A DNA stretch of 64,000 nt from positions 32,551 through 96,550 of IMG/VR virus record IMGVR_UViG_3300026521_000088; one strand, written 5' to 3'. Shown piece by piece: positions 2,752 through 41,239 of this stretch. The DNA is from a virus. Taxonomy: Duplodnaviria; Heunggongvirae; Uroviricota; Caudoviricetes. Position 1 is the first letter of the stretch, and each line of letters starts with the position of its first letter. A program made the position numbers and the translations under genes. The notes under the pieces were generated by a model, which saw nothing but the letters and a program-made list of their open reading frames with translations, made no database searches and had not been told where the DNA came from.

Positions 2752-3978
2752 TTAATATCTTACATCCCAACCTCTGTCTTCTAATGTATCAGCATTATCT
2801 TTACCGTCATCACTAGGTTCTTCTTTATTGTCTTCTAAGTACACACTACCATCTTCTATACCACTATCAACTAAAGCTTGTAATATGTTATCTAGTGCTT
2901 CTTGATCTAAATTGTTTTCATTAAAATTTATATATGTAAGTTTTTCTATTTTATCTAAACCTAATGGTTCTTCATAACAACTACATCTCAAACAATCTAA
3001 ATACTCAAGATTCACCATAGTATCACCAAAATCTAATTGATGGTCTACATAATGTTGTCCACAAATATCTATATGTGTAAGTTTAGGTAAATCTTTTAAT
3101 CCATTAACATTTGATAAACCTCCTTCATAATGTCCAGGTCCCCATATTCTACTAACATCAACATACTCTAACTCAGTTAAACTACTTAAATTATCTAAAT
3201 CACCTATCAAACCATCGTTGTGAGCAAGGTCTATATATTTTAATTTTTTACAATTATGCAAATCAGCTATTCTACCATCTAAAAAAGTAAATGGTAATTT
3301 TAATACTTCTAAATTAGGACAATCTATAAATTTACCGTATAAAGTACCACCATTAAAACCACCACCATACCAAGCACCTCTTGATTGTATATATCTTAAA
3401 TTAGGCATATTATTAAAGTAATAATCTAGTTTAGTCCTAATATGTGTACCCTCTACATTTAAGTATTCTAGTTTATGCATATTTTGCAAACAAGTAACAG
3501 GTCCTGTTATAGGTGTATCGTATAGACTTAATGTTTTTAAATTTACAAGATTTTTTAAATTATCAAAAGAATCTGTAAAACTATCATTTAAATCACTTAA
3601 TGTTAAATGTTCTAAAGTAGTACACATACTAATATTAGCTAAACCAGAACTAAACCCAGCATGTTTAAAATATAACTTTTTTAATTTAGTAAAATATGTT
3701 AATCTAGGTAATGGGCTATTAGGAATATCATTACCATTTTTATCTACAGGTCTTATCCATACCCCACCATTTACACCTATTTCAGTAAACTCTGTACCTT
3801 CTATAAAATTTAATTTATTAACACCAAATTTGAATGTGAATGGTGTACCTGTTTCTACATATTCATCATTAATGTACATGAATTTAGTATCACCTTCAAA
3901 TTGTTGTATTGGGTCACTTAATGTATTACCCAAAAACCAATACCACATAACAGGGAATGGGAATTTTTTACTATACAT
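2752..3978 (-). CDS. leucine-rich repeat (LRR) protein
   Basis: Repeated L-x-x-L-x-L-x-x-N/T units (e.g. LEHLTLSDLNDSFTDSFDNLKNLVNLKTLSLYDTPITG..., LEYLNVEGTHIRT..., LKYIDLAHNDGLIGDLDNLSSLTELEYVDVS), typical of BspA/internalin-type LRR folds. Confidence 0.6.
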   Translation of the reverse strand: MYSKKFPFPVMWYWFLGNTLSDPIQQFEGDTKFMYINDEYVETGTPFTFKFGVNKLNFIEGTEFTEIGVNGGVWIRPVDKNGNDIPNSPLPRLTYFTKLKKLYFKHAGFSSGLANISMCTTLEHLTLSDLNDSFTDSFDNLKNLVNLKTLSLYDTPITGPVTCLQNMHKLEYLNVEGTHIRTKLDYYFNNMPNLRYIQSRGAWYGGGFNGGTLYGKFIDCPNLEVLKLPFTFLDGRIADLHNCKKLKYIDLAHNDGLIGDLDNLSSLTELEYVDVSRIWGPGHYEGGLSNVNGLKDLPKLTHIDICGQHYVDHQLDFGDTMVNLEYLDCLRCSCYEEPLGLDKIEKLTYINFNENNLDQEALDNILQALVDSGIEDGSVYLEDNKEEPSDDGKDNADTLEDRGWDVRY

Positions 3979-6287: not shown

Positions 6288-7321
6288 TATATCTCCTCTA
6301 AGATAATATCACCATTATCTATATATAATTTATAATTTGTATCTGTACTAGCATCATCATATACTGTATCTGTACTAGATGTTTGTAGTTTTGTAGCTTT
6401 ATTAGACTCTAAAGTATCTATGTCACTTTGCAATTCCTCTAATCCAGCTTGTACATCAGTACTAGTTAAATTACCACTAGCTTCTACTTTAATCTCACTA
6501 GCTTTTTCTTCTATATTTCTATTAACTAATGTCCAATCATCTATACTTCCAGCATCATCTACTTCAGCTATTAATGTATCACCTATAGCTACTGATACAT
6601 CATAAAATTCTCCAGCTACAGTTACAGTATACATATCACCAATAGATATAGTTCCAGTATCTGGGTTATCATCTAGGTTTGGTTCATTAGCATCTGCATC
6701 ATAACTACCTTTGTAACTCATTTCACTAGCTACAGCAGCATCTACTTGCTCTTTAATAGCACTATTTATAAGTTCTGGTGTGTATCTATATACAGTATCA
6801 TCTGATGTATCTTTAATTTGATCATCAGTAGCTACAGATACTCTATTGTTATAAGCAGTCTCTATCTCTTCATCTGTTTGGTCAGCAGTAGCTCCAGATT
6901 CAATACCGTCTAATTTATCTCCATCAGCAGAAACATCTCTACCATCTACTGTACCATCTGTTACTAAATTACCAACTGATAAATCACCATCAATAGAAGC
7001 AGTACCATCAGCATTTAAAGTCATACTTTCTAGTACATTACCATCTTTATCTTTTAAAGTGAATGCAGTGGATAAGCCATCTGAAGCTACCGTAAGTTCA
7101 GCATATTTTGTACTAGCATCATCAGCTGTTTTATTAGCCCATAATTGTACTACTCTATCATCTGTAACAATAGGAGTATCTTCTGTTAAAGCTACAGTAA
7201 ATTTTTTAGTAACTACATTCTCTTCATCATCTCGCATAAAACCCATTTCATCTAAGTCTTCTATAAGTTTAAGTAAGAAGACACCAAAAGGGTCTATTAT
7301 ACGATTATAATTTATAATCAT
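6287..7321 (-). CDS. acidic tail-fibre-like structural protein
   Basis: 344 aa, very Asp/Thr/Ser rich, contiguous (ATGA-type overlap) with fibre genes on both sides. Confidence 0.45.
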   Translation of the reverse strand: MIINYNRIIDPFGVFLLKLIEDLDEMGFMRDDEENVVTKKFTVALTEDTPIVTDDRVVQLWANKTADDASTKYAELTVASDGLSTAFTLKDKDGNVLESMTLNADGTASIDGDLSVGNLVTDGTVDGRDVSADGDKLDGIESGATADQTDEEIETAYNNRVSVATDDQIKDTSDDTVYRYTPELINSAIKEQVDAAVASEMSYKGSYDADANEPNLDDNPDTGTISIGDMYTVTVAGEFYDVSVAIGDTLIAEVDDAGSIDDWTLVNRNIEEKASEIKVEASGNLTSTDVQAGLEELQSDIDTLESNKATKLQTSSTDTVYDDASTDTNYKLYIDNGDIILEEI

Positions 7322-11497: not shown

Positions 11498-14488
11498 TTA
11501 CTCACTATAACTATCATAAGCTGTAGACTCTGTATCATCATCTATAATACCCCAGATATACTCATTCATAGGACTATTTCTTTTAGCTTTTTTAACTGCT
11601 TCAGCATTTTCAAATTCTTTAGCAGGATATATAATATCTATCATATTTATTTGAGAAATTAAATCTAATCCATCATCATGTTTAGAACCTATACTTGTAT
11701 ATGATGTATACTTAATCTCTTCCATAAGTTCTCTCATATCTGGAGTATCTTTTAAAGCTTCATTAAACCATATCTTTCTATTTTGAAATAATGGTAACAT
11801 TTGTCTAAATCTCCAATGTTTATTACCACCTTCAAGTCTACTCCTAATACCTTCAGAACCTATCTTAGCTCCTTTTTGTCTAGCAAAACTAAAGAATGTA
11901 TTTCTATCTACCATCATTTGTTTTAAAGAGTATATATGAATATTTTGTTGTCCATCTACTTCAACACCTACATCTACCCATCTAGCATTACCAAATACAC
12001 TTTCAACCATTTTAAAAGTTGTTCTATATTGTTCTTCTAACTCCATTTTCTTTAATGTTAAATCTACTAAAAATATATCACCACTACTAGCTACTGCCCA
12101 TAATGCTGCACCACTAAAATCACTACCTTTACTACCTGTACTTGTATAATCTGTAGTTAAATACCAATTGTATTGACTAGCTCTAGCTTTTATTTTAGCT
12201 GTGTCTATAAATTGTATTAAAGACTCTGGTACTAACCTATCTTCTTCATTACTAATTCTTAGCATTAATTCTTGATTAAATTCCCTTATAGAATTAGTCC
12301 CTAAAGCATCTTCATATCTTTCTTTAACTCTTTCGTAAGAATGCATAGGTTCCCAAGCTCCTACAAACTCTTTCTTAGTTATATTGTCATCTATCTTTTC
12401 ACACATAGGTATACAAACTGGTGTCCAAGTACCAGATTCTAATGCTTGGTATACTGGATCATTTTTATTAAATGGTGTATTAATTGCTATAATTTTACCT
12501 TTCTTACCACCTAAAGCATTTTCAGCATCAGCATACATCATAGACTTAAGTTTTTTCATAATAATTTTAGAATTAGCATCAGCCTCATTCTTAATAATAT
12601 CATCAAAAATAATACAGTTTTTAGATATACCAAATAGTGTACTATAAGCATGGTTTTCCCCAATTACTTTTTCAATATCCCTATTATTACACTGTATAGG
12701 TATTAAGTCTAGGTCTTTTGTTTCCTCTACACTTTTTACTTGTCTCCATAACATACCATTCTCTATATGTACTTGTTTAAACTTTACCTTTGTACTGGCC
12801 GATACATCAATATTCAGTATTTGCTTTACATTTTCTACCAATCTTAGTTCCCATTGATGGTTAATATTGTGTTCTTTGTTAGTTGAATTAAATACTTGTA
12901 CACCACTTCTTTTTGTATTGCGTATATAAGTAGGTAGTCCTAAACGACTAGAAATGACTTGTAGTTGTTTTAATACATTTAAATTAACACTATTTATCCT
13001 TACCTGTTGACTAACTTTCTTATTATCTATATATCCATCAGCAGCTATGTAACCAAGTAATAAATTTTTTTGCTTATTTAAGGTTATACGCATTACCCAA
13101 TCTGGCATATTTTTAATACTATTTCCACTTTTTTGGGACTTCAACCAATTTGACATGTCTGTATCGGATGTAACAATATTATAACAACCTGAACCAAACC
13201 TCTGGATACTATACTTTTTACCAAGACTATCTAGTATACTACATACTTTTTTACCAATAGTTTTCTCTTGGGTATTTGCTATAGTGTAAATTATATTACT
13301 ATTAGATATAGTCCCATCACCTAACCACAAACCATAAAGCCACCACCAATCATCGTTATCAAACTCAGTAAACTGAATCTTTTCTAACTTACTTATTTTC
13401 CTAGTTTTAAGAATCCTACCTTTAGAATCTCTAGCTATGATTTCATCATAGTATTTAACACATTCTACCAATGGAGGGTTGATTTCAGTATAATCAATCA
13501 TTGACCCAATCCAATGTCTATTTGTTAACTTGCTAGCTTCTTCCCAGCAAGCTTCATATTCAATATAATTTTTTACTAATTTTTTACTAGTTCTACACCA
13601 TACTTGGTCATTGGTACACTTTTTAGCCCAGTATTTGTGGTCTTTGCTAACAAATTCTGATTCTGTCAAACCTCTTACTTTAATTTCATACCCATTTTCA
13701 ATAAACCCTTCAGCCTTGATGGGGTGTTCTTCTATAGGATATGTACCGTACTCTGTTGTAACAATAGTCCCTCTTACATGACATTGAGGTCTTTCTGTTT
13801 TATATCTAATACCCCTTACAGAACCTCCAGCAGCACCTTTAACTTTATACATAAATGACCTAGATTTTATAGACTTATTTTCACCAGGTAGTTGCTTTCT
13901 TAAGAACTCACATTCTTCATCTGTAAATCTCATTTTTTCAAAATATTCTTTACAAAATAATGAATCCTCACATATATCTCTAATAGTATTAGCTTGAACT
14001 TTAGCTCCAGCTTGTTGTGAATCACCAAACCCTACTACAAACATAACATCACCAAAATTAGGCATCTTACCTTTTATTGCCAAGTATATAGGTAAAAATG
14101 CTGTAATAACTGTACTTTTAGCTAAACCTCTAGAACACATAATAGCTATTTTTCTATTATTAATTCTAATACTATCTTGAATTTCTTTTGAATATGGGTA
14201 TTGATGTCTTTTAATATTACCAAATACTAAGTCTACTAAAAAGTAATGCATCAAAGAGTTTTCCACTTCAAAGTCTTGTCCTTGTACTAATCGCATTAAA
14301 CTAAAAAATTCTATAGCATCTCTGCTAGGTAAATACCCACCAAATTTTAAATCCATATTATTTAGTGCTTCATCAATATTAAATTTATATTTTTTATTAG
14401 GTACTAACTGCACATCAGGCAAATCTTCTATATCGTTAGCGTTTTCTAAATACTCTTCCCACTCTTTACTTATTTTTTTATTACTCAC
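11498..14488 (-). CDS. terL: terminase large subunit interrupted by an in-frame intein with LAGLIDADG homing endonuclease
   Basis: N-extein has terminase Walker A-like MCSRGLAKST; the sequence resumes as CIIFDDIIKNE (Walker B hhhhDD) after a 389-aa insert beginning with Cys (RPQ|CHVRGTIV...) and ending ...ISKN|C; insert carries two LAGLIDADG motifs (WLYGLWLGDGTIS and LLLGYIAADGYID). C-terminal part is nuclease-domain sized. Confidence 0.85.
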   Translation of the reverse strand: MSNKKISKEWEEYLENANDIEDLPDVQLVPNKKYKFNIDEALNNMDLKFGGYLPSRDAIEFFSLMRLVQGQDFEVENSLMHYFLVDLVFGNIKRHQYPYSKEIQDSIRINNRKIAIMCSRGLAKSTVITAFLPIYLAIKGKMPNFGDVMFVVGFGDSQQAGAKVQANTIRDICEDSLFCKEYFEKMRFTDEECEFLRKQLPGENKSIKSRSFMYKVKGAAGGSVRGIRYKTERPQCHVRGTIVTTEYGTYPIEEHPIKAEGFIENGYEIKVRGLTESEFVSKDHKYWAKKCTNDQVWCRTSKKLVKNYIEYEACWEEASKLTNRHWIGSMIDYTEINPPLVECVKYYDEIIARDSKGRILKTRKISKLEKIQFTEFDNDDWWWLYGLWLGDGTISNSNIIYTIANTQEKTIGKKVCSILDSLGKKYSIQRFGSGCYNIVTSDTDMSNWLKSQKSGNSIKNMPDWVMRITLNKQKNLLLGYIAADGYIDNKKVSQQVRINSVNLNVLKQLQVISSRLGLPTYIRNTKRSGVQVFNSTNKEHNINHQWELRLVENVKQILNIDVSASTKVKFKQVHIENGMLWRQVKSVEETKDLDLIPIQCNNRDIEKVIGENHAYSTLFGISKNCIIFDDIIKNEADANSKIIMKKLKSMMYADAENALGGKKGKIIAINTPFNKNDPVYQALESGTWTPVCIPMCEKIDDNITKKEFVGAWEPMHSYERVKERYEDALGTNSIREFNQELMLRISNEEDRLVPESLIQFIDTAKIKARASQYNWYLTTDYTSTGSKGSDFSGAALWAVASSGDIFLVDLTLKKMELEEQYRTTFKMVESVFGNARWVDVGVEVDGQQNIHIYSLKQMMVDRNTFFSFARQKGAKIGSEGIRSRLEGGNKHWRFRQMLPLFQNRKIWFNEALKDTPDMRELMEEIKYTSYTSIGSKHDDGLDLISQINMIDIIYPAKEFENAEAVKKAKRNSPMNEYIWGIIDDDTESTAYDSYSE
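12617..13783 (-). mobile_element. intein (aa 236-624 of TerL) with double-motif LAGLIDADG homing endonuclease domain
   Basis: Boundaries inferred from Cys1 (C236) and C-extein Cys (C625) flanking ...SKN; LAGLIDADG blocks present; insertion immediately upstream of terminase Walker B. Confidence 0.7.
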
Positions 14489-17184: not shown

Positions 17185-17272
17185 GCTTTGGTACAGATTA
17201 AAAAATCTCAGTAAGATAGATACTATAGGTGCTAGAAATAGCTAATAATAAATTAAATTTAAAGGATAAGTA

Positions 17273-17626
17273 ATGGAATATGCAGTAGTAATAATTGGAT
17301 TAGTGATTGTTTGGAAGATGCTTAAAACAAATGAAGCAAAAACTATAGGTAGAGAACTTACAACAGTTACAGTATCAGGTTTAAAGTCAGCAAGTAACAT
17401 TGCAAAAAGTGGTGAGATAATCACCAAAGATTGGCTTGAAGAAAGTCTAATCGAGTCTGTTGAACAATCTACTAAATTAGAATCTAGATTAGCTAAACTT
17501 ACATTAGACCAAGTTAAGTCTGAAAATGCTGAACTTAAAGGTGTAGATAATACAGTTAAAGAGAAATACGAAGCTGAACTTGCTGCCAATATGCAAAAGT
17601 TAGAAAATTTGAGAAAAGGATTATAA
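17273..17626 (+). CDS. membrane-anchored coiled-coil protein
   Basis: N-terminal TM (AVVIIGLVIVW) followed by charged helical region. Confidence 0.5.
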   Translation: MEYAVVIIGLVIVWKMLKTNEAKTIGRELTTVTVSGLKSASNIAKSGEIITKDWLEESLIESVEQSTKLESRLAKLTLDQVKSENAELKGVDNTVKEKYEAELAANMQKLENLRKGL

Positions 17627-17877
17627 GATGAATAATAATCAACTTAAAGCAGCAATAGCTCTGCTAGGTTCTAAAGCTACTGTAGCTGACTTAGCAAAAC
17701 TTATGAAAATAGTTAAAGCTTAGAGAAATCTAGGCTTTAGCTAAATTAGTCAATGTAGGATTGTTGTTAGAAAACCTTAATAAGTTAAAATGTATAAATC
17801 TAACAACAATATTTGAAAAAACATAAGTTAAAACTATTATAGTAGGACTTATATATTATGTCTGTAGGAGGATAAAA

Positions 17878-18126
17878 ATGAGAAAAATCAAAAAAAGTAA
17901 TGGATCTAGATATGATCTGTATCTAGGAAAAGATTTAGAGTTTATGGAGTTTACAGCTCCAAATTATGATACATATGCACCTGATGGTGCATATGTAAAA
18001 ACAGTAGATAAAAAGGTATATTGGATAGGTTTAATGTCTACATCTAGTGGAAATATATGCAATATAATAACAAAAAAAGAAATAGAAACTAGATTAAATA
18101 ATAACTGGAATATCTGTTCTTGTTAA
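17878..18126 (+). CDS. hypothetical protein
   Basis: 82-aa ORF with AGGAGG SD (ctgtaggaggataaaaATG). Confidence 0.45.
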   Translation: MRKIKKSNGSRYDLYLGKDLEFMEFTAPNYDTYAPDGAYVKTVDKKVYWIGLMSTSSGNICNIITKKEIETRLNNNWNICSC

Positions 18127-18408
18127 AAAAATCAAATAAACTCAAATATATAATATAAGTTTTCTGTACTTTGTTATATATTTGAATAAATATTACTCAA
18201 AAATAAAAAGTAGGATTTATATATTTTAAAATCAAATTAACTCAAACATAAGCTATATAATATATAGTCATCAAATGAGTTATAGAGTATAAGATACATA
18301 GGATTAAATTCTAATGCTAAAGTCTATCAAGGTAGGCTTTATGGATTAGACTAGCTGTGCAATAGTGCCAACAAAACCAAATAAAATAACCAAATAAAAG
18401 GAAAACCA

Positions 18409-19068
18409 ATGAATACAAATAACCAGACACAACAAACATTTAAAGAATTATTAGCAGCAAAAGTAGCAGAACAACAAGCTAAAGCAGAAGAGTTAAGGCT
18501 AGAAGCACAGATGAAATTACTTGATGACGAAAAGTATTTAGAGTCAGTTCGTAAGACAGAAGCTATGAAAAAAGAGACATCAAGACTAAATACAATTATG
18601 AGATCTATCAATACTATGGAACCATTTGTTACACCAAAAGGTGAGAAATTTGGTATTAGATGTTTTCCAGTAAGTTTCTTTGGATTAGGACATAGCTTAG
18701 TAATGGGTATTGTCTTGTCATCTGCTCAAGCCTTTACAGAAGAAAAGTTAATGGAATATTCAGCTATTTCAGGAGTAAATGAAATTCTATTACAACAAGC
18801 TGTTATAGCATTTGGCAGACCAGCTTACTTTAGTAAAGATGGTAAATTGATAGATGAAGAGAAAGGAAACTTTGAAGAGTTCTCAGCTCTACTAACATCA
18901 GTCTATATGGAGCTAGAACTTATGGAGTTTGCTGCTTCAGATATTACAGAAGCTAAGTATAATGCTTATTTTGAAAGAGAGTTAAAGAAAGCTAAAATCC
19001 AAAAAGAAGAGTTTGAGAAAGCTGAGATTCTAGATAATGAAGGAGGTGACTTCGTTATCAATGACTAA
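18409..19068 (+). CDS. putative N-terminal fragment of split T7-like single-subunit RNA polymerase
   Basis: Assignment by position and size: 219 aa + 231 aa places the DWRGR motif at ~aa 450, comparable to T7 RNAP (DWRGR at ~421-425); helical, charged composition like the T7 N-terminal domain. No diagnostic motif in this piece itself. Confidence 0.4.
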   Translation: MNTNNQTQQTFKELLAAKVAEQQAKAEELRLEAQMKLLDDEKYLESVRKTEAMKKETSRLNTIMRSINTMEPFVTPKGEKFGIRCFPVSFFGLGHSLVMGIVLSSAQAFTEEKLMEYSAISGVNEILLQQAVIAFGRPAYFSKDGKLIDEEKGNFEEFSALLTSVYMELELMEFAASDITEAKYNAYFERELKKAKIQKEEFEKAEILDNEGGDFVIND

Positions 19069-19151
19069 AAGATAAGTAAGTAGTCTTAGGACTGCTTATG
19101 TAACCAGCACTATTGTTATATATATATTATTAATTCTGTAGGAGGAATTAA

Positions 19152-19847
19152 ATGATAAGAAATCAAATATTAGATGGAAAGTTAGCGTTACCTGAAATAA
19201 CAGGTTTTGAAGAAAAATATGGTAAAGATATATATAGTAAGATAGATTACATGTTCCAAGCTATGTTTAGAGCATACCTTAAACAAGGTACAAAAGGTAC
19301 CATATCTTTACCATATTGGATTAAGAAGATAGAAAATGTTAAAGCAGTTAATAGTGCTTTAATAGTTCTATCTAAATCAGGTTGGGTAACATCTGTTTCA
19401 AATCCTAGTAGGAATTGGGCAGAAGCTTACATAAATGAAGATAAACTACTTGAGTATGTAACTAAAGAAGAGTTAGCTCAGGTTAGATTGAACAATAAGT
19501 TTAATGCTTATGTCCTAACAAATACTGAAAAAGCAGTATCTAACAATAAAGTTAGAGTAACTGGAAAAGTTATGGAAACAGGTTTAATTAGAGAAGGTTT
19601 CAGAAAAGCTGGTAATGTTGAGTTTGAACTTGATACTGGTACAATAGCTAAGTACCATGACGAGGTAATAGCTCTAGTGAATAAAGGTATTGAAAAGATG
19701 GCTAAAAAGCATAGCTCTATAAAAGAAGACTTAGCTAATTATGCTATAACAGGTGAAGAAGTAGTTGAGTCTTATATTTATGCTGAAGGTATGACATATA
19801 CTCCTGGACAAAATAGTATAGATTGGAGAGGTAGAAACATCAAGTAA
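19152..19847 (+). CDS. middle fragment of split T7-like single-subunit RNA polymerase
   Basis: ORF ends ...NSIDWRGRNIK*, i.e. the conserved DWRGR motif of T7-type RNAPs; the next ORF continues with the NPxG segment that follows DWRGR in T7 RNAP. Confidence 0.7.
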   Translation: MIRNQILDGKLALPEITGFEEKYGKDIYSKIDYMFQAMFRAYLKQGTKGTISLPYWIKKIENVKAVNSALIVLSKSGWVTSVSNPSRNWAEAYINEDKLLEYVTKEELAQVRLNNKFNAYVLTNTEKAVSNNKVRVTGKVMETGLIREGFRKAGNVEFELDTGTIAKYHDEVIALVNKGIEKMAKKHSSIKEDLANYAITGEEVVESYIYAEGMTYTPGQNSIDWRGRNIK

Positions 19848-19900
19848 GATGTTCTGCCTTAGGTTATAAAAATATATATAAAAAATAAAAGGGAAGAAAA

Positions 19901-21136
19901 ATGAGTATGTTAGATAAAATTGGTAATCCAGTAGGTTTTAAGATTATGAGAGCTATGTTAGTAATTCCAGAACAATATAGAAACATTGCAACAGCTAACG
20001 GACTTAAAAATGTGTATCTATTTATAGGTGAGTTATTAGGTTATAAGAATGGAACTGTTCAAGGTAAAATTGAGTTTGGTAGAGAAGCATACTTTAACAG
20101 AACTTTAATTGAAGATATAGAGTTAGATGACTTATATGAGAATATATGGTTAGAAAGACTTTATGAAGATATTGATAGAGTTTTAAATGTAAGAGGAAAC
20201 TATCAGAAAGTTCTAACTTTAAGAAAGTATGAATTAGGTACTATGACTTTAGAAGAATGTGCTAAAGTTATTGAGACATTTGAATATAGAAAATGGTCTG
20301 TACCTATAGAGATAGATGTGTCTGCTAGTGTATTAGCAATCATAGGACTTCTATTAGGGCATAAACCATTTATGAAAAGAACTAATATGATTGGTAACAC
20401 TATTCAAGATGCTTGGAAACATGATGTAGTAACTAACAGAGTACAATTCAAAAGTATTATGAGAATAATTTATGGTTCGTCTATGCCAACTAGCCAAATG
20501 TGGTTAGAGGATGATATTCAGTATACAACTGAAGAGTTACAAGCATTTAGCCAAGAGTTAAAAGATGGTGAGTTAGCTGTAGCTGCTAAATTCAGAGACT
20601 TTCTGATTAAGAATGCTAATATGAAAGAAGAGATGAATATAGTAGTAGACAAAGAAGAGTTTACAATCTACTGCAACAAATTCAGAAATGTAGGTGAGAA
20701 GACTACAAAGTATGATGTATATAATTCAGCTACAAATTCTATCAGAACAATTCAGAATACAAGTACTAAAAAAGTACCAGATTTAAAGAGATTTGCTGTA
20801 AGTACTGTGACTACACTCATTCACAATTTAGATTCACAATGTATGAATAACACAGTAGAAGCAGTAATAGATAAATTTGGATGGGTTATAGACATTCATG
20901 ATGCAATTATAGTTTGTCCAGAAGTTGTAGATTATGCTAGAGATATATACTGTAGTGGTACAGATTCTGATAAACCGAGTTTAGAAAGAATCTATAGAGA
21001 AAGAAATAGTATCCTATCTAAGTATTTTACAAGTATTGGTATTAGACCAAGTAAAATAAAAGAGTGGGGTGAAGTTATGAGTAAAGTAGATAAATTTGAA
21101 GGAGAGTTTAGATGTAACAGAATTGTACTAAAATAA
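19901..21136 (+). CDS. C-terminal (palm/fingers) fragment of split T7-like single-subunit RNA polymerase
   Basis: Begins ...DKIGNPVGFKIMRAML (cf. T7 FNPQGNDMTKGLL); motif A IDVSASVLAII (cf. T7 FDGSCSGIQHF), motif B NRVQFKSIMRIIYGSS (cf. T7 RSVTKRSVMTLAYGSK), motif C IDIHDAIIV (cf. T7 LIHDSFGT). Own SD (aaagggaag) before the ATG. Confidence 0.85.
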   Translation: MSMLDKIGNPVGFKIMRAMLVIPEQYRNIATANGLKNVYLFIGELLGYKNGTVQGKIEFGREAYFNRTLIEDIELDDLYENIWLERLYEDIDRVLNVRGNYQKVLTLRKYELGTMTLEECAKVIETFEYRKWSVPIEIDVSASVLAIIGLLLGHKPFMKRTNMIGNTIQDAWKHDVVTNRVQFKSIMRIIYGSSMPTSQMWLEDDIQYTTEELQAFSQELKDGELAVAAKFRDFLIKNANMKEEMNIVVDKEEFTIYCNKFRNVGEKTTKYDVYNSATNSIRTIQNTSTKKVPDLKRFAVSTVTTLIHNLDSQCMNNTVEAVIDKFGWVIDIHDAIIVCPEVVDYARDIYCSGTDSDKPSLERIYRERNSILSKYFTSIGIRPSKIKEWGEVMSKVDKFEGEFRCNRIVLK

Positions 21137-21139
21137 AGA

Positions 21140-21194
21140 CTTAAGTAGGTGACCTGTATAGGTTACTTGCTTAAGTTATTTTTTTTTTTTTTTT
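21140..21194 (+). terminator. rho-independent terminator after the RNAP gene
   Basis: Imperfect hairpin (cttaagtaggtgacc ... ggttacttgcttaag) followed by a 16-nt T run (21179-21194); a second T13 run at 21265-21277. Confidence 0.6.
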
Positions 21195-22745
21195 GATTTT
21201 AATGAACTAACTTTTTAAGAAGCCAAGTAATAACTAAAGTATCTTTTATAAGGTATTTTAGTTATTTTTTTTTTTTAAATTAATAAACATAGTGGATAGT
21301 ATTTATTAAGATATTAGATATTTATTACTTTTTATTATAAGAAAAAACTTATTGATAAAGAGAGTAAGTAAAATAGATACTAAATAAAAAGGATATGTAA
21401 TAATACAACTGACAAAAAAACTATCAAATACATTACTTGTAGAAAGTTTGTGTGGAGATGGTAATAATATAACTTTACTATGGGTTAAACCTGCTAACTT
21501 ATTTACTACACCACACGATGAACTATTAAATATTAATAGTATGTTATTATTAAATTTAGAAGCATTAATATATAATAAATAAAAGGATATATATGATTCA
21601 ATTAATGAAATTTCAAAATAAAGATTCAAATAATGCAATTAGTAGGAGTAATATAGGCTACTGTAATTATATAACTTCATTGTGGTTTATGGTTATTCTT
21701 CCAGATATTAAATCTATTAATGCTTCTAAAAGAATGTTAGTACATCTAGATGGGTTAATAATGGATAATATAAATGAAAAGGTATATATATATGACACAA
21801 ATACTAAAGACTAAAGGTGGAACAAGTACAAGAATTCAAATTACTAGAACAACTACACCTATATGTGTAACATCATTATGGTATGCATCTCAAACTTTAT
21901 TTAGTAAAAATAGGTTTGATGGTAACATTAGACTACTGATAGATTTAGAAAGATTAGTAATAAAAACTTATAAAGGTGTACTTAATGATTCAATTATTAG
22001 AAAGATATAAAAATGTATCTTATGGGTTAGTTTCATATAATAGATATTTTTCAAGAGTATCTATTATTATAACAAAATTTTCTAGATTTAATGCTAATAA
22101 TACTCTTATAGTATGTTTAAATGATATAGATGTATATGCTAATTTAAAGGATAAAAATGATTAACTTAATTAGATATAACAGTGGGGTTATAGCATACGG
22201 TAATTATTACGATAAACATATAACTTTTTTATGTATAGTCGGTATATGGGAAATAAGTATAAATAAAAATTTGTTAAAAAATTTAGATGAACTAATGCTA
22301 ATAAAATAAGGATTTCTATGTTACAAATAATGAAGATAAAAAATAATGTAAGATTAAATTGGTTAGGTTATAGCTTATATTGTATAACAGATTTACCATA
22401 TTTATCAAATATACAGTTAATTAACACACCTTATGGTAGTAATAATAGGGGTTTATCAACACTTATTAATATGTATACTTTTAAAACATGTAAGGATTAA
22501 AAAATTATGACTCAAGTACTTAAAAGACATGTTACAGATTATAAGTTACATTATTCTAGTATTTTCATAGTAAATAATCATATTTTATCAAAATACTGGT
22601 TTTTCTTAACTGATTGTAGAAAAATAAATCAAAATATATTAGTTAAGTTAGGTTGTAGCAATATAAAAATTTAAGGATATATTAGAAAATCTATTAATAT
22701 TTAGATTTGCTAAATAAATAAGATATATAAAATAAAGGAATTAAA

Positions 22746-25933: not shown

Positions 25934-26019
25934 GCTGCTATGGTGGAAAGGTAGACACTGAAGGCTTAAAACCTTCTGACTGAAAAGTCGTCCCAGTTCG
26001 AATCTGGGTAGCAGTACCA
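25934..26019 (+). tRNA. tRNA-Leu (anticodon TAA), type II with long variable arm, CCA encoded
   Basis: Acceptor GCTGCTA/TAGCAGT, anticodon arm GAAGG-CTTAAAA-CCTTC, variable stem-loop, T arm CCCAG-TTCGAAT-CTGGG, then ACCA. Confidence 0.8.
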
Positions 26020-26021
26020 AA

Positions 26022-26095
26022 TCTCCAATAGCTTGAAGGTCAAGCAAATGACTGTTAATCATTAGTTGTAGGTTCGATTCCTACTTGGAGAGCCA
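26022..26095 (+). tRNA. tRNA-Asn (anticodon GTT), CCA encoded
   Basis: Acceptor TCTCCAA/TTGGAGA, D arm GCTT-GAAGGTC-AAGC, anticodon arm AATGA-CTGTTAA-TCATT, T arm GTAGG-TTCGATT-CCTAC, then GCCA. Confidence 0.8.
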
Positions 26096-32488: not shown

Positions 32489-32948
32489 ATAGGACTTCAG
32501 TCCTATATATTTTTTAAAGTATTATATATAAATATTTTTAAAAATATACAGGAGTTAGGTAATGGTGCAGGTAGTAAAGAAATATAAGAAAGATTGTTAT
32601 ATTTTGGATTATTCAAATTTATGTATGTCTACAGATAGTTTAGATGTAAACCTATGTTTACTGTATGAGATAGATGAGTTAACATATATACCATAATATA
32701 ATATAAGTTATAAATATTTTATACTAATGTAATGACTTATTATTAAAAACAATATAAATCTAGATAAGAGGGGTATAAATGATACAATTAGTTAATATGT
32801 ATTATACAGAAATAGAAGGTAGTCCTAAAATAAAAGTACATAAATGGAATTACTTATATGCTGGTTCATCATCATTAAATAACAGTATTAATACAGAGTT
32901 GTTATATAGGATAAATTACTTAAAACTACATACATAAAGGTAAGCATT

Positions 32949-37429: not shown

Positions 37430-38521
37430 ATGAATAACCAAACTAAATTTTTTTTTTTAAATAATAGTGGTACAGTAAGAGTTATAGAACTGGATAAAGA
37501 TACAATACAAGAATCACTGGTACCTGCTATATATGAAGTAAACTATAATCAAATGACAGGATATTATCTTACATATATAACTGATAAGTATAAATTACCT
37601 AAGCGTATTCTTGGTTCTATAAACAAAAGAGTAGATAAGGTAATCAATACCTACAATAATGAACCAAATAAAAATACTGGTGTACTATTACTTGGGGAGA
37701 AAGGTTCAGGTAAAACTCTACTATCTCAGGTTATTGCGAACAAAATGATAGAGCAAAATATTCCCGTTATTACAGTAAATACACAATTTTCTGACTCTTC
37801 TTTTATAAATTTCATTAAATCTCTTGATAATATCTGTCTAATATTTGATGAGTTCGATAAGCATTATTATAGACTAAAAGATGAAGGTGAAGCTGATGAT
37901 ACACAAACAGAAATCCTAAAACTCTTTGAGGATAATAATGATAAAAAATCAAAGAATTTAAATATCATTATTGCAAATAATGGGTATAGAATATCAGATT
38001 TTCTAATAGATAGACCTTCAAGGTTTAAATATAGATGGCACTATAATAAAGTAGAACCAGAAGTGATAGAAGAATTATGTTCTATACATAATCTTCCTAG
38101 TGATAAAACAAAACAACTTGTAGATTACTCAAAATCTGTTAAGTTGTTCTCATTTGATATTCTTGAATCGATAATTAAAGAATGTATATTATACTCTAAT
38201 GAAGATTTTAATGATATTATAGAGGATATGAATATACCTAAAGTAAAACAAGAAATAAAATTTAAAATTGAAGAAGTAGAATATAAAGGTAAAACATATA
38301 AGGCACAAAAAGAGGTATATATTAATCATTATTTTAAATTAAATAATATATACGATGCTATACAAGATAAAAATATACCTCATGAATCTATGTCATATAG
38401 TTTAGATAACCTTATTTACTCGGATAGTACAACAGAAATATACAGTATTATGAGAAATGAAATGTTAATAAAAGTAACTAAGGTATTTGAGACTGTGGAT
38501 TATAGAAATCTATTAGTGTAA
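37430..38521 (+). CDS. AAA+ ATPase
   Basis: Walker A LLLGEKGSGKTLLS, Walker B CLIFDEFD; T11 homopolymer at codons 7-10 (37449-37459). Confidence 0.65.
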   Translation: MNNQTKFFFLNNSGTVRVIELDKDTIQESLVPAIYEVNYNQMTGYYLTYITDKYKLPKRILGSINKRVDKVINTYNNEPNKNTGVLLLGEKGSGKTLLSQVIANKMIEQNIPVITVNTQFSDSSFINFIKSLDNICLIFDEFDKHYYRLKDEGEADDTQTEILKLFEDNNDKKSKNLNIIIANNGYRISDFLIDRPSRFKYRWHYNKVEPEVIEELCSIHNLPSDKTKQLVDYSKSVKLFSFDILESIIKECILYSNEDFNDIIEDMNIPKVKQEIKFKIEEVEYKGKTYKAQKEVYINHYFKLNNIYDAIQDKNIPHESMSYSLDNLIYSDSTTEIYSIMRNEMLIKVTKVFETVDYRNLLV

Positions 38522-39201: not shown

Positions 39202-39803
39202 AAACAATTAAAATATTAAGTAAAGAGCCGCTTGCAAAACCAAAGTTTCTTAAAACAGAACTTGTAACTTACCAAAAAGATAATGAAAAACCAAGACAAT
39301 GGGAAGTTTTACAAGGATTTGATACAGTACACATTCTCATTAAAAATACTGATACAAACAAGTTCTTGTTAGTCAAGCAAAACAGAATACCTGTAGCTGT
39401 CAAAAATACTAATCAAGGTATTTGTATAGAATGTTGTGCAGGGATTATTGATAAATACCAACATTCAAAATCATCTTTATATCAAGCTAAATTAGTAGCT
39501 AGAGATGAGATACTTGAAGAATTAGGTTATCATAAAGAAAATTTAAAGGATATTGAATTAGTAGACACATTACTAAGTTCAGTAGGCACTGTTGGTTCTA
39601 AACAATACTTGTTCTATTGTGAAGTTAACGATTCTGAATATACAGGACAACATTTAGAACCAGATGAAGAAATTGAAGTTATTGAATATACAAGTAATGA
39701 TTTAATGGATTTAATATTTAAAGAGTATAATACAGACTCGGTGACTAAATATTTATGTTTAAATCATATTGGAGAAATATATAACATAAAGGATAATTTA
39801 TGA
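39186..39803 (+). CDS. Nudix hydrolase (ADP-ribose pyrophosphatase-like; NatV C-terminal-domain equivalent)
   Basis: Nudix box-like ...LVARDEILEELGYH...; overlaps the NMNAT gene by 16 nt and the NadV gene by 4 nt. Confidence 0.6.
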   Translation: MEVMVKTIKILSKEPLAKPKFLKTELVTYQKDNEKPRQWEVLQGFDTVHILIKNTDTNKFLLVKQNRIPVAVKNTNQGICIECCAGIIDKYQHSKSSLYQAKLVARDEILEELGYHKENLKDIELVDTLLSSVGTVGSKQYLFYCEVNDSEYTGQHLEPDEEIEVIEYTSNDLMDLIFKEYNTDSVTKYLCLNHIGEIYNIKDNL

Positions 39804-41239
39804 GTAAACTATTAGAATCAACATTAATAACAGGAGATAGTTATAAATATGGGCATCCATTTCTATTAAGAGATGATATAGCTTATCAATATAACTATAT
39901 GGAAGCAAGAAAAGGCGATGATATAATATTTGTAGGTATGCAATATTATATTAAAAAGTTTCTAACAAAAGTACCATCAAAGAAACAAATTAAAAAAGTT
40001 AAAAAGATGGCATTAAAGCATGGAATTTATTTTGATGAAAAGATGTGGAAATACATCAATAAATTAGGATATTATCCAATTAGAATTAAAGCAATACCAG
40101 AAGGAACAAAAGTACCATCAGGTGTACCATTAGTTACTTTTGAAAATACAGATCCAGAATGTGTAGGATTAGTAGGTTTTCTTGAAACTCTGTTTATGAA
40201 AGTATGGATGCCAACATCGGTTGCTACGCAAAGCTATGAAGTTAAACAGATGTTATTAAAGTATGGTTCACCTGAATGGGCTGAATATGCTTATCACAAT
40301 TTTGGTTCTAGAAGCACAACATCATTAGAACACGATATGATTGCTGGATACGCACACCTAACACAATTTAAAGGAACTGACAGCTTTTCTTCACTATTCT
40401 TTTGCGAAAAATACTATAATCAAGGGAAAGAACCAGCAGGATATTCAGTATTAGCAACAGAGCACTCTGTTACTACAATGAATGGTATAGAAAACGAAGA
40501 AGAGTTTGTATATAAAACATTATTAAATAATCAAAATAGTCAAATTATCTCATTTGTTGGAGATTCTTATGATATTTATAAATTTACAGATTTTGTAACA
40601 AATCCAAACGGTAGAATAAGAAAATTACTAAACAAAAGAAAAAACCAAAAACTTGTAATTAGACCAGATAGTGGAGAACCAATTAAAGTACTTAAAGGTG
40701 TTATTGATATAATGAAAAACAATGATTGTTTTAATTCTGGAATAGAAGGTAAACTATTGTCGCCTAAATACGGAATTCTTTGGGGTGATGGTATAACACA
40801 AAAAATAATTGAACACATTCTACAATACTTCACTAATGAATCTTATAGACAATTCATGATAAATAGTAGTACAGACATACTAGCAACTAAAATTAAAAAT
40901 TTACAATTACTAGCAGCAGAAAACTTTGTATTTGGTTCTGGGACAGACTTAGTTAATTCAAAAGATAGAGATACTTATGGATTTGCTATTAAATGTTCAT
41001 CAGTTACACTTAAAGATGGTACAGAGCTAGATGTATTCAAAAATCCTATAACTGCACCTACTAAAAAATCGAAAAGAGGTAGAGTAGAAACAGCATTTAA
41101 CACAGCAAAGAAAACATATAGAACAACTAAAGGTGGGTATAAAGATATAGAAACGAAAGCGTTACAGTTAATATTTGAAGATGGTAAGTTATATAATGAA
41201 ACTTCCCTAGAAAACATTAGAAGTAACAGTTTAAAATAA
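39800..41239 (+). CDS. nadV: nicotinamide phosphoribosyltransferase (NAMPT/NadV)
   Basis: N-terminal TGDSYKYGH (NAMPT DSYK motif), 479 aa, typical NAMPT length and composition. Confidence 0.75.
   Translation: MSKLLESTLITGDSYKYGHPFLLRDDIAYQYNYMEARKGDDIIFVGMQYYIKKFLTKVPSKKQIKKVKKMALKHGIYFDEKMWKYINKLGYYPIRIKAIPEGTKVPSGVPLVTFENTDPECVGLVGFLETLFMKVWMPTSVATQSYEVKQMLLKYGSPEWAEYAYHNFGSRSTTSLEHDMIAGYAHLTQFKGTDSFSSLFFCEKYYNQGKEPAGYSVLATEHSVTTMNGIENEEEFVYKTLLNNQNSQIISFVGDSYDIYKFTDFVTNPNGRIRKLLNKRKNQKLVIRPDSGEPIKVLKGVIDIMKNNDCFNSGIEGKLLSPKYGILWGDGITQKIIEHILQYFTNESYRQFMINSSTDILATKIKNLQLLAAENFVFGSGTDLVNSKDRDTYGFAIKCSSVTLKDGTELDVFKNPITAPTKKSKRGRVETAFNTAKKTYRTTKGGYKDIETKALQLIFEDGKLYNETSLENIRSNSLK

Follow-up and report, generated by a model that had tools for sequence, protein, structure and literature searches.

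The window analysed here (64,000 nucleotides (nt), positions 32,551 to 96,550 of the viral record IMGVR_UViG_3300026521_000088) carries three co-oriented open reading frames (ORFs) at 18409-21136. Two of them, ORF2 and ORF3, encode what sequence motifs and structure prediction identify as the two halves of a very divergent T7-type RNA polymerase (RNAP), whereas ORF1 is not a polymerase fragment but a separate, conserved neighbour gene. The features of the locus, with lengths in nt or amino acids (aa), isoelectric points (pI) and Shine-Dalgarno (SD) sequences, are as follows.

18409..19068, plus strand: ORF1, 219 aa, pI 4.8, 24-25 kDa; PHROG 22535
19069..19151, plus strand: gap between ORF1 and ORF2, 83 nt, with a strong SD sequence, AGGAGG, at 19140-19145
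19152..19847, plus strand: ORF2, 231 aa, pI 9.0, 26 kDa; PHROG 27203; ends ...SIDWRGRNIK, stop
19848..19900, plus strand: spacer between ORF2 and ORF3 (the fission junction), 53 nt, AT-rich, with stops and an SD-like AAGGGAAG at 19889-19896
19901..21136, plus strand: ORF3, 411 aa, 48 kDa; starts MSMLDKIGNPVGF; phrog_22493 and phrog_22720
19925-19936, plus strand: NPVG motif of ORF3
20303-20329, plus strand: motif A of ORF3, PIEIDVSAS
20438-20482, plus strand: motif B of ORF3, RVQFKSIMRIIYGSS
20822-20836, plus strand: HNLDS motif of ORF3
20891-20905, plus strand: motif C of ORF3, DIHDA
21138..21195, plus strand: intrinsic terminator with an 18-bp stem (21138-21177) and a T-run after it

The three ORFs lie in three different frames, and an SD-like sequence precedes each ATG. 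The terminator after ORF3 is strongly stable (folding free energy, dG, -24.3 kcal/mol; z -5.97), and 0 of 200 shuffled sequences fold equally well. The gap between ORF1 and ORF2 holds no terminator; the hairpin found there, at about 19076-19099, is non-significant (z -1.5). Because the sole intrinsic terminator sits directly after ORF3, the three genes look like one operon. The DWRGR motif of ORF2 lies at 19821-19835, with the stop codon three residues further on, and a TAA at 19886-19888 closes the frame of ORF3 ahead of its ATG, so that a simple frameshift out of ORF2 cannot reach ORF3. In all these respects an earlier note on this DNA had described the locus correctly: the coordinates, gap lengths, frames and motifs A-C, the separate SD and ATG of each ORF, the stop in the second gap, and the passage from DWRGR at the end of ORF2 to an NPxG segment in ORF3. 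In both gaps (19069-19151 and 19848-19900) the ribosome-binding site (RBS) is also preceded by an ATATATAT(A) tract. The promoters of N4 RNAP II are short and AT-rich (PMC4496689), and by that analogy the tracts could be internal middle promoters; they could equally be due to chance at 27% GC.

None of the three ORFs gave an RNA_pol match in a Pfam scan, and PF00940 (RNA_pol) did not match the ORF2+ORF3 concatenate either. NCBIfam returned nothing for the three ORFs, phmmer searches of ORF2 and ORF3 against PDB sequences gave nothing relevant, and all four PHROGs matched by the three ORFs (phrog_22535, 27203, 22493 and 22720) lack a function label. The relatives of ORF3 are more informative: among the best 120, 96 are single chains of ~600-670 aa that contain both ORF2 and ORF3. 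ORF2 aligns to residues 1-231 of such fused ~640-aa homologues, and one of them (P0003) reads ...NDSRGRNISGMLNKIGNPIGFKIMR... across the position where the window has ...IDWRGRNIK, a stop, and then MSMLDKIGNPVGFKIMR.... The family comprises at least 330 clusters at 50% identity, mostly from environmental metagenome and viral contigs, and the best 150 matches in an exhaustive HMMER search were family members only. Its only cultured representatives are the Alteromonas phages vB_AmaP_AD45-P1 to P4 (the AD45 phages), in which homologues of all three ORFs occur in unchanged order. With a hidden Markov model (HMM) of the family, the best PDB match was a mitochondrial RNAP, at E 0.6 only. PF00940 itself recovers little of the family, with 1 of 57 members reaching E 0.069, and we therefore claim membership of the single-subunit RNAPs (ssRNAPs) at the level of fold and motifs only.

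For that purpose the window's ORF2+ORF3 concatenate was aligned with 56 fused homologues (alignment A1, 57 sequences) and its structure was predicted (predicted local distance difference test score, pLDDT, 94.2; predicted template modelling score, pTM, 0.89). In a Foldseek search of the PDB with this model, elongation complexes of T7 RNAP ranked highest (E 9e-12, probability 1.0) and the yeast and human mitochondrial RNAPs came next; the structural alignment covers 520 residues of T7 RNAP. The model has the right-hand arrangement of palm, fingers and thumb, closest to that of the T7, mitochondrial and N4 RNAPs. The motifs DWRGR, IEIDVSAS, RVQFKSIMRIIYGS and IHDA are all present. In the 57 sequences D224, R226 and R228 (DxRGR), D370 (motif A), Y422, H564 and D565 are invariant, K415 and G423 (motif B) are conserved in at least 90%, and N240, P241, H539 and D542 are invariant or nearly so. 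Since both the catalytic and the ssRNAP-specific residues are retained in this way, ORF2 and ORF3 together appear to make up a complete single-subunit-type polymerase with an intact catalytic apparatus; RNA synthesis itself is a prediction. ORF2 would be the small subunit, with the N-terminal region (probably including a winged helix at about aa 25-95 of the model), a region equivalent to the thumb, and DWRGR. ORF3 would be the large catalytic subunit, with palm, fingers and motifs A-C.

Natural two-piece enzymes of the T7-like family have been known since 2002. RNAP II of phage N4 is a heterodimer of gp15 and gp16 whose small subunit carries the DX2GR motif and whose large subunit carries motifs A-C, and 24 of more than 500 homologues counted in 2015 were heterodimeric (PMC4496689); with this precedent a natural multi-chain enzyme is less unusual than the earlier note had supposed. 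The window shares the N4 arrangement: two separately encoded chains, DX2GR in ORF2 and motifs A-C in ORF3. By comparison with N4 RNAP II (PDB 6DT7), ORF2 is equivalent in role to gp15 (RNAP1) and ORF3 to gp16 (RNAP2). Neither BLAST nor HMMER detects similarity to gp15 or gp16 (BLASTP of ORF2 against gp15 and of ORF3 against gp16 was not significant), and hhalign of the family against gp15 as a single sequence found nothing. A probable relationship emerges between profiles. A Schitoviridae RNAP1+RNAP2 profile built from seven members aligned to A1 with 92.5% probability (E 4.8e-7) over 353 columns, from residue 148 of ORF2 through DxRGR, NPxG and motifs A and B to HxxDS. Within this alignment ORF2 aa 148-231 pairs with gp15 162-243, and DxRGR is in register. 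The complete enzyme is of similar size, ~600-650 aa in the family and 673 aa in N4 RNAP II. In contrast to N4, however, most members of the window's family are single chains, and their N-terminal half is not recognisably gp15-like, with an apparent winged-helix module.

T7 RNAP is a single chain of 883 aa that requires no cofactor. ORF2+ORF3 is ~240 residues shorter and differs from it further in having no Pfam RNA_pol match. By motif register the break in the window corresponds to the loop after DxRGR, at about T7 residues 426-430, and to our knowledge this loop is not among the commonly used split sites of engineered T7 RNAPs (67, 179, 301 and 601).

The ORF2/ORF3 split is real, and is neither a sequencing artefact nor an intron, as the earlier note had also held. 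Over 3,004 nt (positions 17198-20201), both gaps included, the window agrees at 100% identity with L055, an ENA contig from a separate assembly. A different phage (L005) has the same three-ORF layout (221+229+411 aa), with protein identities to the window of 72% for ORF3, 64% for ORF2 and 59% for ORF1. Here the split point recurs: the upstream chain ends ...DWRGRNIK and the next opens MSML.KIGNP..., across a 34-nt spacer that differs in sequence from the window's. Between these two phages the synonymous divergence (dS) is ~0.9-1.45, and the ratio of nonsynonymous to synonymous divergence (dN/dS) is 0.23 for ORF1, 0.28 for ORF2 and 0.22 for ORF3; ratios this low despite such divergence indicate that all three genes have been under purifying selection since the split. 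The 53-nt spacer has no Rfam match, contains neither an intron nor a recoding structure, and is unstructured (dG -4 kcal/mol, z 0.18). At the junction no residues have been lost or added: the halves follow the fused homologues with an offset of at most 1-2 residues, and the lack of extra residues excludes the halves of a split intein. Structurally, the break maps to a loop of the model that connects the strand at 222-224 with the helix at 232-235, and pLDDT dips to 85 there. No phage genome gave a megablast match to the region.

We considered where else the polymerase is divided in this family. Breaks between separate chains fall at three nearby profile positions.

Type A, profile ~232: the window and L005
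Type A', profile ~237: L010 (205+245+406 aa), reading ...DPRGRDNAGYL, stop, then MAIGNPIGYKV..., with a 24-nt spacer that contains stops
Type B, profile ~255-256: L006, the AD45 phages, ~16 IMG/VR loci and many protein clusters

Type B matches the N4 boundary within ~5 residues. The gp15/gp16 boundary maps to ~260/262 of the concatenate, whereas the window is broken at 231/232, 29 residues upstream, so that the window and N4 do not share an identical subunit boundary. The breaks at profile ~334/374 and ~539 differ in nature, being group I introns (Rfam RF00028, 55-97 bits) that sit in or next to motif A and, between LIH and NLDSQ, within the LIHNLDSQ segment of the polymerase gene.

AD45-P4 (L001) and AD45-P1 (L002), 6778-7032: group I introns, RF00028
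L045, 7012-7313 and 7856-8100: group I introns, RF00028
L046, 7002-7248; L047, 7589-7874; L049, 7144-7354: group I introns, RF00028

The AD45 intron bears a GIY-YIG/NUMOD endonuclease ORF, and GenBank lists its flanking exons as separate hypothetical proteins; the protein clusters P0073, P0105 and P0111 terminate exactly at that intron site. A 416-aa protein (P0014) that had been a candidate for a second type A split proved to be a fused gene cut at the end of its contig. In the IMG/VR relative L030 (5941-7710) the polymerase is spread over two stop-to-stop segments, one covering profile 5-330 and the other 362-636, with 6 nt between them; this could reflect another break site or a sequencing frameshift.

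In neighbour-joining (NJ) trees the clade of the window and L005 and the lineage of L010 nest inside different fused clades. This placement among fused lineages makes the split in the window a derived fission that arose independently, and it is for this split only that we claim derived status. An NJ tree rooted with Schitoviridae, a weak method, places the type B clade among the earliest branches; with so weak a rooting, the ancestral state of the whole family could be either fused or split like N4. Sampled classical N4-like phages (L056, L058-L062) have one or two small ORFs (66-107 aa) between RNAP1 and RNAP2, the exceptions being N4 itself and one record in which RNAP1 is unannotated. An 84-aa ORF likewise lies between the two polymerase pieces of AD45 (L001 5668-5922). 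This shared arrangement hints that the type B split may be ancestral and homologous to that of N4.

After enlargement of the ORF1 family with the syntenic ORFs of L006 and AD45, 129 homologues were found, all free-standing and none fused; the 120 listed are 215-233 aa long, P0121 is a relative at 94%, and the family is uniformly acidic (pI 4.7-5.6). An IMG/VR scan with the ORF1 alignment yielded 6 loci only, and the RNAP alignment was used to assemble the locus set instead. In 34 of the 37 assessable IMG/VR loci an ORF1-family gene lies upstream of the RNAP, as it also does in L001, L005-L008 and L010. The two are mostly direct neighbours, whether the polymerase is fused or split, and in 0 of ~45 loci, including those with fused ORF2+ORF3, is ORF1 joined to the polymerase. 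In the AlphaFold2 model of ORF1 (pLDDT 91.4, pTM 0.78), a long helical hairpin at the N-terminus precedes a small alpha/beta core, and another long helix forms the C-terminus. Foldseek against the PDB returned nothing significant for this model and no RNAP (best E 0.37, template modelling (TM) score at most 0.2), and a profile search of the PDB with the ORF1 family gave noise only.

Because of this tight linkage to the polymerase gene, ORF1 is most likely an accessory or recruitment cofactor of the enzyme, a reading that draws on synteny and on analogy with N4-related phages. N4 RNAP II requires gp1 and gp2 (PMC4496689). The RNAP II of phage LUZ7 binds an unrelated single-stranded DNA-binding protein, Drc (gp14), and cofactors vary among N4-related lineages: gp2, gp1 and Drc are small early-region proteins, lineage-specific and mutually non-homologous, that are needed for or bind RNAP II (PMC7145618). 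ORF1 resembles them in being lineage-specific and polymerase-linked, and is acidic like gp2 (pI 4.8 versus 5.2). It differs in size (219 aa versus 161 aa for gp2) and has no sequence or structural similarity to any of the three: hhalign of the ORF1 family against gp2 and gp1 gave a probability of 0.2% each, and the PDB search, in a library expected to contain the reported crystal structure of Drc (PMC7145618), produced no fold match of any kind. As those cofactors are mutually non-homologous too, a functional analogy of ORF1 to gp1, gp2 or Drc is possible.

The evidence on ORF1 bears on the reading proposed in the earlier note, a T7-like RNAP in three pieces (219+231+411 aa), with ORF1 as the detached N-terminal, promoter-binding domain. 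The summed 861 aa come near the 883 aa of T7 RNAP; ORF1 points the same way as the polymerase genes, is tightly linked to them and seems to be transcribed with them; and N4-type minimal RNAPs, with their truncated N-terminal domains, depend on helper proteins (PMC4496689). Nevertheless, we regard this reading as highly improbable. The confident ORF1 model matches no RNAP, and hhalign assigns the ORF1 family a probability of 0.04% against T7 RNAP. ORF1 thus lacks a correspondence to the T7 N-terminal domain (residues ~1-325), an outcome that the earlier note had itself named as refuting. Neither the homologues nor the loci include a fusion. ORF2+ORF3 alone cover the 520 aligned T7 RNAP residues and equal a complete N4 RNAP II in size, which makes the agreement of 861 with 883 aa a coincidence. 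What stands of the proposal is a naturally fragmented ssRNAP, in two chains rather than three. Still less probable is that ORF2 and ORF3 represent some other right-hand member of the family-A superfamily, such as a DNA polymerase or primase-polymerase; Pfam gives no RNA_pol match, and the fold search and the ssRNAP-specific residues point to T7-type RNAPs.

Two further explanations concern the junction rather than the identity of the enzyme. The first is that the break is an artefact (an assembly indel) or marks a decaying pseudogene, recently inactivated by mutation in a gene that normally gives one chain. In its favour, most relatives are single-chain, and the case of P0014 shows that short gene calls can mislead. 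However, the junction is identical in the separately assembled L055, L005 keeps the same break with intact halves at dS ~0.9 and dN/dS 0.22-0.28, no residues are missing, both halves come with a start codon and an SD of their own, and analogous clean splits occur in other lineages; we give this explanation no more credence than the family-A one. Alternatively, a single chain might be restored by intron splicing, split-intein trans-splicing, frameshifting, readthrough or bypass of the 53-nt spacer. The lineage is indeed rich in mobile elements, with group I introns in the same gene of AD45 and other relatives, and the window's terminase has a LAGLIDADG domain suggesting an intein. Yet 53 nt is far below the size of group I or II introns and matches nothing in Rfam, neither side of the junction has extra residues that could serve as intein halves, the spacer is unstructured with a stop in the frame of ORF3, and it is not conserved in L005, where both length (34 versus 53 nt) and sequence differ. 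Restoration of a single chain is the least probable of the four.

We therefore favour, at a probability of roughly 80%, a heterodimeric polymerase of the T7/N4 RNAP II type formed by ORF2 and ORF3, with ORF1 as a separate accessory protein. In such a system one operon mRNA, ORF1-ORF2-ORF3, would give three proteins, ORF2 and ORF3 each being translated from its own RBS, and the ORF2 and ORF3 chains would assemble non-covalently into the equivalent of the single ~640-aa chain of the relatives. The small subunit would contribute the N-terminal domain, the thumb and DxRGR, and the large subunit the remaining palm, the fingers and motifs A-C. The gene fission would have come about from a fused ancestor, by insertion of a spacer with stop, SD and ATG into a surface loop three residues past DxRGR. 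By analogy with N4, the enzyme most likely transcribes the middle, replication-phase genes, and ORF1 would probably help it to engage templates or promoters, as gp2 does for RNAP II in N4 and Drc in LUZ7.

A more far-reaching proposal combines two ideas, and we offer it tentatively, considering it less likely to be right than wrong. ORF1 may be an obligatory third component, with a fold not seen before and a role in specificity or recruitment, that supplies the promoter engagement lost with the truncated N-terminal domain. The holoenzyme would then have three chains after all, for another reason than that given in the earlier note. At the same time, the loop after DxRGR may be a privileged point of gene fission and fusion, crossed repeatedly at four positions within ~30 residues, N4's included.

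The source of the window is a ~104-kb marine podovirus-type phage of 26.7% GC, with the Alteromonas AD45 phages as relatives and the N4-like phages as more distant ones. For the window's DNA polymerase and RNAP pieces the AD45 phages are the first match, followed by Schitoviridae. AD45-P1 to P4, which are unclassified, resemble the window's source phage in genome size (100-104 kb) and have comparable gene content. Unlike the window, they have the polymerase cut at the N4-like site (profile ~255) with the 84-aa ORF between, and the large-subunit gene further broken by the group I intron, all pieces being annotated as hypothetical. The AD45 phages were described as relatives of N4 with a virion RNAP split into two ORFs, and their describers found no RNAP II genes (PMC3821669); later papers citing AD45 make no mention of RNAP II. 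The ORF2/ORF3 family is very probably the RNAP II missing from AD45-like phages.

Some other genes in the window are of note as well. The longest ORF in the 64 kb (11498-14488, minus strand) encodes an unusually long TerL of 996 aa, in which the match to the TerL PHROG is limited to aa 624-966 and a LAGLIDADG_3 homing-endonuclease domain occupies aa 474-528, which suggests an inserted intein. Two adjacent tRNA genes at 25934-26095, Leu(TAA) and Asn(GTT), suit the AT-rich codons favoured at 26.7% GC. A nicotinamide phosphoribosyltransferase gene (NAD salvage) lies at 39800-41239, an AAA/STAND-like ATPase gene at 37430-38521, and a gene for a leucine-rich-repeat protein within the structural module at 2752-3978 (minus strand).

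These findings do not overturn the current understanding of T7-type polymerases, and their significance is moderate. Three things are new. The first is a widespread ssRNAP family, highly divergent and so far without annotation, that supplies the RNAP II reported as absent from AD45-type phages. The second is a break site 29 residues away from N4's, in a linker where fission has recurred. The third is ORF1, a tightly linked partner that has no detectable structural relatives and is a promising candidate for a transcription factor of a new class. Pfam, PHROGs and NCBIfam leave the family unannotated, so genome annotation and transcription models of these abundant N4 relatives can be corrected. 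The break positions provide naturally validated split sites for engineering split T7-type polymerases. More broadly, the family is a natural experiment, in which one enzyme occurs as a single chain, as two chains cut at three nearby positions in addition to N4's, and with group I introns at its catalytic motifs; it is thereby relevant to a question that the N4 review calls open, namely why polymerases of the N4 type are heterodimers.

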